A stretch of DNA of 36,439 bases, from IMG/VR virus record IMGVR_UViG_3300025082_000003; one strand, written 5' to 3'. The stretch comes from a virus. The position numbers and the translations under genes were made by a program. The notes under the pieces are model-generated. The model searched no databases. It was not told the DNA's origin and saw only the letters and a program-made list of their open reading frames with translations. This document shows positions 23,702-30,084 of the stretch, one piece after another. How positions within the stretch are numbered: the first letter of the stretch is position 1; the number at the start of each line of letters is the position of its first letter.

Positions 23702-24163
23702 ATGGGATTATCATATAAAAAAGATGCAGTACCTTCAACATTAAGAGAGGGAGAATTTGCCGTAGTTGACGGGGTTACTTATGTGGGTAATTCTAGTAAT
23801 GAGCCTGTTTTGGTTTCAGGAATTGAAACGGCTTTTATAGGGGTTGTAACATTTAATCCATCAACATCCATTTCTATATCCGAAATCAAAAACGGTATAG
23901 GAACTTATACGCTTTCGTACACGTCGGGACCTGATAGGTACAGAATTGATTTTGATGACGCTCTTTATAGCGATTTTTCAAATATATCTATCAGGTATGG
24001 AAATACAATAGCCAATGGATTATCTTTCCCTAATGGTCTTCCTATAATTCATTCTTCTACAAAATTAAGAATAGAGTTCACAGACCCTTCTAATCATGCA
24101 GGTACTGTCATATACGGTTCTCCAAAGGTTATTTACGTGTATATTGATGTAATCAGGTCATAA
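23702..24163 (+). CDS. Hypothetical structural protein
   Basis: 153-aa ORF, tightly coupled to its neighbours. Confidence 0.6.
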   Translation: MGLSYKKDAVPSTLREGEFAVVDGVTYVGNSSNEPVLVSGIETAFIGVVTFNPSTSISISEIKNGIGTYTLSYTSGPDRYRIDFDDALYSDFSNISIRYGNTIANGLSFPNGLPIIHSSTKLRIEFTDPSNHAGTVIYGSPKVIYVYIDVIRS

Positions 24164-25233
24164 TGCCTAACGCACTCATTATAGGGATATCAGACACTTT
24201 GAATCATGAATTAATAGTTCGTGATTCATTTCTTACCTACGCTCCTAGCGGATGGGATGCTGATATCATTATGGGTACGGAAAATCCTGATTTAATTGAC
24301 AATCAGTATGTAGTTGCTACTTTAGAAATGGGTGGTCAAATAACCTATACTGAATTAGATGGATTTAGAAACTACATATCCAACAACTCACAATACGACA
24401 TCATTATATGCTCTTACTACCTTGAAGGGATTGCATCTGTTTTAGAGGCAATAGTAAGTATTGAAGATAGAGTTTTGTTTATGCCTTTAGTTGGTGGTTC
24501 GGCTAGAAAAAAGAATAACATCATTTATTGTGGAGTAGGTGAAACATCAAACACGATATCAAGCGATAGCAGTAGAATTGAATGCTTCGATAAAGCTACT
24601 TTATTACAATCATCAAGACAATTAACTCCTTCTTATGTAGTGCCTTCAATCGCAGGGAAAGCTTGTTCACTAGTTGATGCAGGACTTACTAACACTCAGG
24701 TTCGCCAAGCCTTTAGAAGCAATTTAAACGACACTTGGACTCAAACAGATGGATTTGGTAAAGTACCATCTAGTTTAACCGTTCCCGAGAGCTACGACAT
24801 TGAGCCTGTAAACAACTTTAGTTTTATAGGTTATGCAAGTTCAACCTATTCAGAGTACACTTTATTTGAAGGGCAAACGATTGATAGTGTTCGTATTTAT
24901 ATGGACGACCAACTTTTATGGGATGGTAACGGAACCGAGAACACACTTTCAGCCACTACATACGCTCCATACGATACAAGGGTAACATACCGAGCTTTAT
25001 TTGAAGATTTTACTTACACATTTGACCAAGACGATGAAGGCGAACACGTATTCAAAGCCGTTGCAGTAGTTGATGATGTAGAATCAGATGCAGAGATTTT
25101 TAGTAAAGAAACGCTAACACTTACACAGGCTATTTTAGAAAACTATTTCGGTGTAAGTTATGACAATCCCGAACCAGCACCACCTGAACCCGTAGAGCCT
25201 GACCCCGAACCCGAAGACCCGAAGACCCGATAG
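24163..25233 (+). CDS. Distal structural protein ending in a Pro/Glu-rich linker
   Basis: 356-aa ORF whose C-terminus is PEPAPPEPVEPDPEPEDPKTR. Confidence 0.65.
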   Translation: MPNALIIGISDTLNHELIVRDSFLTYAPSGWDADIIMGTENPDLIDNQYVVATLEMGGQITYTELDGFRNYISNNSQYDIIICSYYLEGIASVLEAIVSIEDRVLFMPLVGGSARKKNNIIYCGVGETSNTISSDSSRIECFDKATLLQSSRQLTPSYVVPSIAGKACSLVDAGLTNTQVRQAFRSNLNDTWTQTDGFGKVPSSLTVPESYDIEPVNNFSFIGYASSTYSEYTLFEGQTIDSVRIYMDDQLLWDGNGTENTLSATTYAPYDTRVTYRALFEDFTYTFDQDDEGEHVFKAVAVVDDVESDAEIFSKETLTLTQAILENYFGVSYDNPEPAPPEPVEPDPEPEDPKTR

Positions 25234-25517
25234 TTCCCGACCCCACACAACCGACAGCCGTACGAGTTGGAACGACTGTAACAGTTACAGCTAATGAACT
25301 GGGAACTAGTCAAAAACTCTTCCGTAAGCTACGAACTAACGATGAATGGGTACAAGTAGCGACTGCAACCGATGGAGTACTTACAGATACCGTTGATGAA
25401 GCTAAGAACTACATATACGCTATTAAGATAGCTAACTCAACAGATGAATCCGATTACTCGGAACCTGTGTATGTAGCAGGGGTTAAATCAACTCCGATAG
25501 TTAGTCTTATATATTAG
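25203..25517 (+). CDS. Out-of-frame Fn3/Ig-like C-terminal domain of the preceding gene (no start codon of its own)
   Basis: The -1 frame is open for 104 codons. It reads VRVGTTVTVTANELGTSQKLFRKLRTNDEWVQVATATDGVLTDTVDEAKNYIYAIKIANSTDESDYSEPVYV, a typical Fn3 pattern. Confidence 0.55.
   Translation, partial: PRTRRPEDPIVPDPTQPTAVRVGTTVTVTANELGTSQKLFRKLRTNDEWVQVATATDGVLTDTVDEAKNYIYAIKIANSTDESDYSEPVYVAGVKSTPIVSLIY
25211..25226 (+). repeat. 8-bp tandem duplication CCGAAGAC x2 (plus a partial CCGA)
   Basis: Read directly from the sequence: 25211-25218 equals 25219-25226. Confidence 0.9.
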
Positions 25518-28667: not shown

Positions 28668-28732
28668 TATTCTTTTATCCTTAGATTTTTAATATCAACG
28701 CCAAACTTATCAGCTACTTTAAATTTACTCAT
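28667..28732 (-). CDS. Possible 21-aa peptide (not in track)
   Basis: ATGA overlap upstream and TAATG overlap downstream. Sequence MSKFKVADKFGVDIKNLRIKE. Confidence 0.25.
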   Translation of the reverse strand: MSKFKVADKFGVDIKNLRIKE

Positions 28733-28956
28733 TCCGAAACTCCTTTAAGTTTATTTATCTCTGTTACAAGCTCATTTATCTTTTCTATTAAAACGGCAAT
28801 GTTTTCAGATGTAGATTCGGGAACTGCTTTATATTCGTAACCATCAGGTTTTGAATACATGTTTGGCATATCCCATATTGAAATTTCTTTAATACTCATT
28901 ATTCTATATTTAGTTAAAATTAATTGAGCCGATTGAGGGATATGCTCCCCCTTCAT
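28729..28956 (-). CDS. Hypothetical protein (the alternative start at 28899 gives MSIKEISIWDM...)
   Basis: 75-aa ORF and the first gene after the ORF-free region. Confidence 0.5.
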   Translation of the reverse strand: MKGEHIPQSAQLILTKYRIMSIKEISIWDMPNMYSKPDGYEYKAVPESTSENIAVLIEKINELVTEINKLKGVSE

Positions 28957-29546
28957 CCATTGCAGAATCGGCTTCCAGAAACAACATAATTAACTGGTTT
29001 ATGTTTTACTGGATTATCCAGTTTAAAATAAGGCTCACTAACTGCTTCAGGGCTTAGTGAGTGGTGTGTTTCGTTACGTCTTTCAAAACCCGATACGCCT
29101 GAAGATCACCGCTTCCTTAAAATGTTGAGTGAGGACAGGATTCGATACCTGTAAGATGGTTTGTTGCTTCGATGCTTTAATCCATTTAGGAGTGTCCACA
29201 TGGGTCTTATCCATCTACCCGTTATAGCGTTTACTTATCGCATTGCCCGTAGTCTGGATTATTCGGTTAATAACCTATTTTTATGCGCTTTCGCCACCTC
29301 ACTCAGTTTCAAGGAACCCGAACTAAACACCGCTTTCATGTCTCTTTTGCTTCTAGGAAAGCAGGGCGTCCTAGAACATTCGGGTTCCAATTTCATTAAA
29401 TTCAAAGAACTGTTTAAAACCCGATTATGCTCTCACACACAATCGGATAATCTCATTTGCTTATTTTACTGATAAAATCGTCTTTCAGCGTTTCGTTTAT
29501 TTCGTTTACTATCTCGGAGGTTTTCATATCAATTCCTTTTAATTAA
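28957..29546 (-). ncRNA. Candidate large structured RNA / structured leader (class unknown)
   Basis: About 590 nt with no credible ORF in a tightly packed operon. Counted 60-nt lines are about 43-48% GC against about 27% in the flanking genes. There are many perfect helices: 29313-22/29379-88 (10 bp), 29351-58/29369-76 (8), 29034-41/29054-61 (8), 29126-34/29297-305 (9), 28983-89/28999-29005 (7), 29155-60/29211-16 (6) and 29421-26/29441-46 (6). Strand is assumed from context. Confidence 0.4.
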
Positions 29547-29571
29547 AAGCACCTACTCACCTTCGGTGCTT
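29547..29571 (-). terminator. Stem-loop of the inverted repeat copy, followed on the minus strand by TTAATTAAAA
   Basis: The same hairpin as 162..186. Confidence 0.4.
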
Positions 29572-29577
29572 TGAGAA

Positions 29578-29712
29578 TTAGTTATTCTTCAAATCAGCTA
29601 TGTGGTTAATCCAGTTGTTAGCCTGTTCGTAATAATACTTATCACCCGTTTCAGCAAAGGCATCTTTAAAAAATTCTACTTTAGTTTCTGCGTGTTTAAT
29701 TTGTTCGGCCAT
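29578..29712 (-). CDS. Second identical copy of the 44-aa small protein
   Basis: Identical nucleotide sequence to 21..155. Confidence 0.4.
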   Translation of the reverse strand: MAEQIKHAETKVEFFKDAFAETGDKYYYEQANNWINHIADLKNN

Positions 29713-29793
29713 AATTCTCAAAGTTTGTTATTAATTGCTTACACAAAGATAGTAAACTCTAAATTTAAAGTCAACTTTAGTTAACAATTATTT

Positions 29794-30084
29794 TCAATTA
29801 ATCATTTGCATAGTTCCGTACCCGTGTTTTAGTACGTGAGATTGATACCACCTGTCGTTAATTAGCTCATTATGTTTTTTCACGCTCTTATAAACTGTTA
29901 CTCTCGTTCTGTTTAGAAATTCAGATATTTTTTTAATCGGAATACTTTGAGATTTACAAAGCGCTATAAACCCATGTCGGTACATACAAAGCTCCTGCAA
30001 CTGGTTAGGGGATGTAAGGTCGCTTACTATTATCCCGTGTTGCTTACAATAGAATTTTGCTAGGTTTTGGATGGATGGTTTCAT
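29794..30084 (-). CDS. DnaA domain IV-like HTH protein
   Basis: LCMYRHGFIALCKSQSIPIKKISEFLNRTRVTVYKSVKKHNELI resembles the DnaA C-terminal DNA-binding domain. Confidence 0.45.
   Translation of the reverse strand: MKPSIQNLAKFYCKQHGIIVSDLTSPNQLQELCMYRHGFIALCKSQSIPIKKISEFLNRTRVTVYKSVKKHNELINDRWYQSHVLKHGYGTMQMIN

Follow-up and report, generated by a model that had tools for sequence, protein, structure and literature searches.

A probable tRNA-Leu-derived, anticodon-less RNA gene in an uncultivated marine phage and its relatives in other phage contigs

IMG/VR record IMGVR_UViG_3300025082_000003 is an essentially complete genome (~36.4 kb) of an uncultivated marine phage. The whole stretch analysed here (36,439 nt) is referred to as the window. 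Exact-protein look-ups found identical contigs of this phage in several JGI, ENA and Logan assemblies. The plus strand carries the structural genes (within 1-25.2 kb of the window); the minus strand encodes the early and replication functions, with ERF, SSB, HTH_36, a DnaC-like loader and a DnaA_C-like HTH protein. The region of interest, 28957-29546, is flanked by two minus-strand genes, one of 47 aa (29578-29721) and one of 75 aa (28729-28956). It had been described from the letters alone as an ORF-free, GC-enriched and helix-dense stretch of about 590 nt, a candidate for a large structured RNA of unknown class. The features that we assign are as follows.

29546..29572, minus strand: 8-bp hairpin with a U-rich tail, terminator-like, 5 nt past the stop of the 47-aa gene (read from the sequence)
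29453..29527, minus strand: candidate 24-codon ORF (MKTSEIVNEINETLKDDFISKISK) with AAGGA 8 nt upstream
29419..29448, minus strand: 12-bp hairpin followed by a U run, terminator-like, directly after the small ORF (fold)
29313..29388, minus strand: 76-nt branched hairpin closed by GGAACCCGAA/UUCGGGUUCC (fold)
29124..29303, minus strand: probable tRNA(Leu)-derived, anticodon-less tRNA-like RNA gene, 180 nt including a 4-nt trailer (match to covariance model R1)
29297..29303 / 29128-29134, minus strand: acceptor stem AGUGAGG / CCUCACU (the long-range helix of the original prediction)
29227..29294, minus strand: D arm, GCG (29292-29294) / CGC (29227-29229)
29239..29287, minus strand: D-loop insert, 49-nt hairpin closed by CGCAU/AUGCG (same-position inserts in relatives)
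29154..29216, minus strand: variable domain, 63 nt, closed by AGAUGG/CCAUCU, a helix already listed in the original prediction (fold)
29135..29152, minus strand: T arm, stem ACAGG/CCUGU with the 8-nt loop UAUCGAAU at 29140-29147 (family scans)
29034..29061, minus strand: 8-bp hairpin CUCACUAA/UUAGUGAG followed by CCUUAUUUUAAA (sequence and fold)

All helices listed in the original prediction, GGAACCCGAA/TTCGGGTTCC among them, were found at their given coordinates in the sequence and its folds. The two mutually exclusive pairings proposed around 29421-29452 turn out to be a single 12-bp hairpin with a U run behind it; a simple terminator scan did not call this hairpin (29419..29448). It was correctly noted that no long minus-strand ORF crosses 28957-29546, but the 24-codon ORF (29527..29453) shortens the untranslated stretch to ~495 nt. 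The plus-strand ORF 29161-29472 (103 aa) is without PHROG or Pfam match. Stops of all three kinds are present in every frame of the region, and recoding or a decayed gene was rejected as a candidate. The G+C content is above that of the adjacent early genes, but the enrichment is weaker than claimed: 0.393 for the region against 0.366 for the whole window, and 24% of all 590-nt windows in the genome reach or exceed the value of 28957-29546. Lines of 60 nt said to be 43-48% GC measured 0.40-0.47, and only between 29020 and 29379, and the neighboring genes, put at about 27%, measured 0.29-0.36. The whole 590 nt folds only modestly better than shuffled sequences (z = -2.38 for the minus strand, -2.06 for the plus strand). 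Among the minus-strand blocks, z is -4.07 for 29306-29460 (with the 76-nt hairpin), -2.40 for 29124-29305 and -0.55 for 28957-29123 (with the hairpin at 29034..29061), the last being no better than chance.

The whole window gave no match to Rfam 15 at the gathering score, and a search of 28700-29800 at E values up to 10 returned only chance-level matches to SCARNA7 and U12. BLAST searches against GenBank phages, with the region, 25 kb of the window and one family member as queries, found no relative. Use of the DnaC-like loader as a protein anchor in IMG/VR found nothing, and the exact-protein look-ups returned only 100% identical copies of the window phage, which carry no local covariation. 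Because all copies of this locus are identical, the inner helices specific to the window are without covariation support of their own.

The center of the region can be read as a tRNA-like RNA in the order AGUGAGG-UGGCGAAAG ... ACAGG-UAUCGAAU-CCUGU-CCUCACU. The predicted long-range helix TGAGTGAGG/CCTCACTCA is its closing (acceptor) stem, to which G29304:C29127 can add an eighth pair; pair 3:70 is U:A, and the discriminator position, right after the 7-bp stem, is C. The acceptor strand is followed by UGGCG(G/A)AAG and the T loop reads YAUCRAAY, so both family features are present. U8-G9, the 3-pair D stem, the D-loop flanks of tRNA-Leu and the 5-pair T stem are kept. The D loop consists of AAAG, the inserted hairpin and AUAAGUAAA. 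The variable domain (given as about 63-70 nt) ends 1 nt before the T stem and occupies the place of a tRNA variable arm; there is no anticodon arm. The fold with the D-loop insertion is 4.5 kcal/mol worse than the minimum free energy structure, in which GCG pairs with the adjacent CGC (GCG-AAAG-CGC). The comparative pattern described below nevertheless favors the insertion fold over the local hairpin, against the energy. ARAGORN did not find a tRNA or tmRNA in the window element, with or without introns allowed, and Rfam RF00005 gave no match on it.

Before the 3' strand of the long-range helix comes ACAGG-UAUCGAAU-CCUGU, which resembles a T arm with one extra loop base, and on this basis the pattern CAGGNATCGAATCCTGNCC was scanned against IMG/VR (the T-arm scan). 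It returned 53 stretches with 46 distinct sequences. In 37 of the 46, the 7 nt after the T arm are fully paired upstream (G-U allowed), at a distance of 94-216 nt in all but one of the 37, and the sequence of this acceptor partner varies from contig to contig. The partner is followed by UGGCGGAAG(AUAGA)CGC, a tRNA-Leu D arm, which was outside the search pattern. Nearly all of the retrieved sequences start with N7-UGGCGGAAG...GACGC, a consensus of the tRNA-Leu type. Covariance model R1 was built from 26 T-arm-scan sequences, with the window and its nearest relatives left out and with only the acceptor, D and T helices used. R1 matched the window at full length (29303..29124, minus strand, 51.5 bits, E = 1.7e-11, model positions 1-122 of 122), and this was its sole match within the window. 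Family members score 30-79 bits and the true tRNAs in the fetched loci ~25-29 bits; 53.5 bits were obtained for a canonical tRNA-Leu that is part of a tandem array (L060, 6610-6698). Judged by these matches, the window element belongs to a large family with members across many unrelated phage contigs and absent from Rfam 15, in which 31 family loci had no match over the elements.

A second IMG/VR scan, for the D arm alone (GTGGCGGAAGATAGACGC), yielded 78 stretches with 60 unique elements that have a closing acceptor. The 8-nt loop YAUCRAAY is found in 23 of the 60, on 11 different fully paired 5-bp stems, from which it follows that the T stem covaries. About 20 of the 60 (class B, a label of this analysis) carry a 7-bp arm with a UGNRAGY loop, and a canonical T loop is present in only three. 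Since a scan with the D arm alone yielded such loops, the GG-less D loop and the non-canonical T loop go together. Both IMG/VR scans were anchored on exact motifs, so the apparent invariance of the motifs is partly due to retrieval.

Sixty-three distinct sequences were aligned to R1, a fit that leans towards structure. Standard pairs occupy 98.9% of the pair cells compared to 71.6% in shuffles and 34-48% in slid-partner controls. Compensatory changes were detected at 12 of 15 pairs, among them all seven of the acceptor and four of the five in the T stem, with 256 compensatory cells observed versus 64 expected. The acceptor/D-arm and D-arm/T-arm cross-checks are free of the alignment-fitting bias. 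A protein gene that has decayed, one of the alternatives offered for the region, is unlikely, since the match is to an RNA model, is confined to one strand and comes with compensatory changes.

Scans of metagenomes and viral contigs for the subfamily pattern GGCGRAAGCG...CAGGTATCGAATCCTG found 13 and three loci, respectively. All of them have the form GGCGRAAG-CG[hairpin]CG-A(A/U)AAGUA(G/A)ACGC, and the D-loop insert of the window is followed by AUAAGUAAACGC, which fits the last part of this feature. Inserts of 19-76 nt were found at the same D-loop position, where G18-G19 would be, in 12 other distinct sequences. Their closing stems differ (CGUAUGGU/ACCAUGCG, CGUGAGAU/GUCUCACG, CGCACCUC/GAGGUGUG, CGAUGGUGU/ACAUCAUCG and others; CGCAU/AUGCG in the window). 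Among related phages sharing the acceptor GGAUGGG, identity is 58-99% over the 200-nt flanks and 83-100% over the cores, while the middle domains, of varying length, are unrelated (31-57%). Unrelated middle domains might also reflect a lack of constraint rather than a payload. A helix abuts the T stem in most relatives; as a family-wide feature it was rejected, the trend being barely above shifted controls. As far as these alignments reach, the acceptor/D/T core is conserved and covarying and the inserts differ even between related phages.

Several phage tRNA arrays include a member in the same orientation as the tRNAs (L016, L028, L029, L032 and L058), and two members adjoin a phage tmRNA (L096 and L061). 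L060/L063 carry a tandem array of five related units, one of which is a true tRNA-Leu; in L060 its acceptor and D arm are common to its anticodon-less neighbors. A pac site or replication origin, also suggested for the region, is unlikely given the tRNA clusters in which relatives are found. In 8 of 46 elements the discriminator is followed by CCA, compared to ~1.6% (1/64) by chance, and the most common discriminator in the family is A (20/46 and 17/36). The element occupies a different genomic position in a phage that shares 71% identity with the window in its large terminase. A genome of Petrimonas sulfuriphila DSM 16547 (locus L066) contains two copies, the only match of one genome-contig scan; with this single scan and its narrow pattern, the host distribution is poorly sampled. 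No protein family is consistently adjacent to the members beyond subgroup synteny, and no defense or toxin genes were seen in any member neighborhood. No antisense target of at least 13 nt was found within the window phage.

The flanks of the tRNA-like RNA appear to be of a different nature. The 76-nt hairpin (29313..29388) lies directly upstream and is lineage-specific; it may be part of the 5' leader of the tRNA-like RNA. No homologs of this hairpin were found, and the 66 pattern matches in viral contigs are mostly protein-coding coincidences. One match with matching flanks was rejected, as it falls inside a long open reading frame (portal-like by eye). Downstream of the tRNA-like RNA come the 8-bp hairpin at 29034..29061 and two small hairpins. 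The 8-bp hairpin, with its U-rich tail, is a candidate transcript end as read from the sequence. This hairpin re-uses the acceptor hexamers.

Taken together, the center of the region (29303..29124) is probably a ~176-nt RNA gene descended from tRNA-Leu and a member of a widespread phage family in which the core would act as a handle and the inserts as payload. This reading is favored because a conserved core is combined with exchangeable structured inserts, which follows the logic of engineered tRNA scaffolds. The element would be transcribed along with the early genes, which are on the same minus strand. RNase P and the 3' tRNA-processing enzymes might then excise it, and a CCA end might be added, as for its neighbors in phage tRNA clusters. 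The tRNA core would provide a handle for processing and stability, and the variable inserted domains would be the functional payload. Its likely role, as we infer it, is that of a non-decoding tRNA mimic. It is conceivable, and we put it forward tentatively, that phages widely encode an as yet uncatalogued class of non-decoding tRNA-Leu derivatives, whose remodeled core would hijack the tRNA maturation of the host and so display rapidly exchanged RNA modules, placed in the D loop and at the site of the anticodon arm, against targets in the host or in rival phages. If true, nature would have its own "tRNA scaffold" system, and RNA warfare between phage and host a new layer.

In a second explanation, the main rival as to function, which we regard as rather unlikely, the RNA is a decoy: the acceptor/CCA end and the core would soak up a tRNA-directed defense enzyme, a toxin or a tRNA-binding factor of the host, with the inserts being incidental and the missing anticodon and remodeled elbow keeping the RNA off the ribosome. 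The conserved core with no decoding capacity, the CCA encoded in 8/46 elements, the multiple tandem copies in some phages and the lack of a fixed protein partner would all fit. A decoy needs the core alone, yet large and stably folded inserts persist, one of them always at the same place in the D loop with its closing stems kept, and no neighborhood links the family to defense or toxin genes.

It is very improbable that the region encodes a single ornate structured RNA of ~590 nt of a new class, as first proposed with GOLLD and ROOL named as known examples from phages. Several strong hairpins stand side by side, with the best-folding block at the 5' end, and the G+C content is locally raised. 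Only 180 nt of it, however, are conserved, covarying and matched by the family model. The closest relatives, L014 (with the same acceptor) and L025, have nothing in common with the window outside these 180 nt, the 3' block folds no better than chance, and the stretch is interrupted by the small ORF and two terminator-like hairpins. There is no Rfam 15 match to GOLLD, ROOL or other large ornate RNAs in the window at the gathering score, and we saw no sign that the flanking pieces and the tRNA-like RNA make one large RNA. A structured RNA absent from Rfam is therefore what survives of the prediction, reduced in size and tRNA-derived; the remainder of the 590 nt consists of ordinary intergenic parts.

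A dead tRNA-Leu pseudogene, or a host tRNA gene surviving only as an attachment-site remnant, in neither case functional as RNA, could account for a tRNA-derived sequence that has no anticodon and C instead of A as discriminator. We give this reading very little weight: dozens of unrelated contigs show the GG-less D loop and the 8-nt T loop again, together with compensatory changes in the acceptor and T stem, and both tRNA halves are present and paired with each other. No integrase was found among the window proteins scanned, and the relatives are inside tRNA arrays, not at genome ends. Finally, a decoding tRNA-Leu from which two small introns are spliced, one located in the D loop and one in the anticodon region, is hardly credible, even though the inserts are at discrete positions and the cores resemble tRNA-Leu, as removal of the inserts restores no anticodon arm, the T loop is non-canonical in the unspliced core, ARAGORN in intron mode called no tRNA in the window element or 34 of 35 relatives (one of the 36 was called, as a doubtful tRNA-Phe), and no Rfam group I or II intron was found in the window.

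Few accessory genes are as common in phages as tRNA genes, and the results suggest that a sizeable set of tRNA-derived phage genes is invisible to the tools tried (ARAGORN and Rfam); the two exact-motif scans alone returned 53 and 78 stretches. Because these RNAs cannot decode, they must put the tRNA shape to some other use. If the core is a handle for variable modules, or a decoy, the family would offer a new and tractable case of tRNA mimicry in phage-host conflict. For annotation, the family also accounts for a recurrent "ORF-free GC-rich gap" in AT-rich phage genomes.

Compared to a canonical class II tRNA-Leu, the window element has the same 7-bp acceptor, U8-G9, 3-bp D stem (GGCGGAA...GACGC), helix ending just before the T stem and 5-bp T stem. 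The canonical T loop has 7 nt (UUCRANY) and forms the elbow with the D loop. The window element differs in the missing anticodon arm, a hairpin in place of G18-G19, the 8-nt T loop and the C discriminator; by the first three of these it cannot decode and its elbow is remodeled. A 5-bp/7-nt hairpin with U33 and R37 is present in 4 of 44 members, with unrelated triplets, and the window element is not among them. Leucylation in E. coli needs the tertiary pairs between G18-G19 and the T loop (G18:U55, G19:C56 and U54:A58), and A73 is the major LeuRS determinant; E. coli tRNA-Leu without the anticodon and variable arms is still chargeable, given A73 and intact elbow contacts (PMC9976931). By these E. 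coli rules, charging of the window element by LeuRS is unlikely because of C73, the absence of G18-G19 and the altered T loop.

In tmRNA, as in the window element, an acceptor stem and a T arm close a large non-tRNA insert and there is no anticodon. The window element has no G3:U70, tag frame or tmRNA pseudoknot set, and its D arm is well formed. A tmRNA was rejected, as neither ARAGORN nor Rfam gave a tmRNA match in the window. The ends of YrlA RNA form a Ro-binding stem and not an acceptor stem, whereas those of the window element form an acceptor stem. Bacterial YrlA (RF02553), a tRNA mimic, is a non-decoding, Y-RNA-like RNA with a tRNA-like module that is found in phages too (PMC4201824). 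It was rejected here, since the RF02553 model had no match in the window or on the family elements. The tRNA-miRNA TMERs of murine gammaherpesvirus 68 are natural tRNA-scaffolded RNAs. An engineered tRNA scaffold is used for recombinant RNA, as outlined in PMC3753655. In tRNA-scaffolded RNAs, a tRNA core serves processing and stability and an unrelated module replaces or follows the anticodon arm. This resembles the core/insert pattern of the family as an analogy of design only, with no homology.

No description of the family or its T-loop motif was found in full-text searches of the open (non-subscription) literature. A 2023 catalog of viral candidate RNAs mentions unspecified "tRNA-like" candidates (PMC10690425). 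The T4 species 1 and 2 RNAs (rnaC and rnaD), located at the end of the T4 tRNA cluster (locus L065), are similar in being non-decoding stable RNAs encoded beside phage tRNAs. T4 rnaC ends in a T-arm-like CCGGGUUCGAAUCCCGG followed by an acceptor-like strand, with the upstream pairing read by eye. In contrast to the family, its T loop is a canonical one of 7 nt and a tRNA-Leu D arm is absent; R1 gave no match on the T4 locus at E <= 0.01, and there is no sequence similarity. We know of no function for the species 1 and 2 RNAs, and the family may shed light on them. The family sits among the tRNA mimics and tRNA-derived stable RNAs, yet it is uncatalogued in Rfam 15.

The tRNA-like element of the window (29303 to 29124, minus strand) is followed on the same strand by a trailer hairpin. 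The hexamers CUCACU and AGUGAG of the acceptor stem (strands 29128-29134 and 29297-29303) recur in this hairpin, CUCACUAA/UUAGUGAG (29034-29061). The trailer hairpin could be a competitor of the acceptor stem or the remnant of a duplication.

The neighboring 47-aa gene (29578-29721, minus strand) is bracketed by a perfect 12-bp inverted repeat, CTTTGAGAATTA at 29569-29580 and TAATTCTCAAAG at 29712-29723. In at least eight independent assemblies a contig ends or starts between 29573 and 29732, and these contigs are otherwise 100% identical to the window. The inverted repeat and the breakpoints together suggest a cassette that is either invertible or polymorphic and at which assemblies break off. 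A separate feature, at 25140-25500, involves a 356-aa ORF (24163-25233, plus strand), which ends in a Pro/Glu-rich repeat. With a GC of 0.52, this repeat is the GC peak of the window. Beyond the TAG stop of the ORF, approximately 90 codons are open in another frame that has no start codon (VPDPTQPTAVRVGTTVTVTANELG...SLIY*). The open frame may be a C-terminal extension reached by frameshift or readthrough.

Among relatives of the element on other phage contigs, five loci from related phages (L015, L033, L048, L049, and L061) share 58 to 99% identity in the flanks and 83 to 100% in the RNA cores, while their RNA middle domains are unrelated in sequence and differ in length. For example, L015 and L048 are 99% identical across the 200-nt downstream flank, and their middle domains are 50% identical. 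The tRNA-like element adjoins a tmRNA and tRNAs in the phage RNA gene clusters of L096 (1370-2037; standard tmRNA) and L061 (1468-2546; permuted tmRNA). In L016 the element likewise adjoins a tRNA, one whose UUA anticodon reads the stop codon UAA. One contig, L025/L073 (1822-2988 and 4027-4212), encodes a large terminase 71% identical to that of the window and also carries a member of the subfamily with a hairpin inserted in the D loop. Roughly 1 kb separates this member from the terminase gene, whereas the window's element is located in the replication module.

Other relatives, referred to as class B, keep the acceptor and tRNA-Leu D arm of the family, but the T arm is replaced by a 7-bp arm with a UGNRAGY loop (e.g., GCAAGGG-UGAAAGU-CCCUUGC). 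Class B is about as frequent as the class whose T arm bears the 8-nt loop YAUCRAAY. Its members are found at the following loci:

Class B: L081, L082, L106, L126, L127, L130, L132, L133, L147, and others

Five tRNA-Leu-related units are arranged in tandem in L060 (6518-7854), and L063 has the same array. One of the five units in L060 is a true tRNA-Leu, which ARAGORN calls; its acceptor GUCAGGG and its D arm are common to two anticodon-less neighbors.
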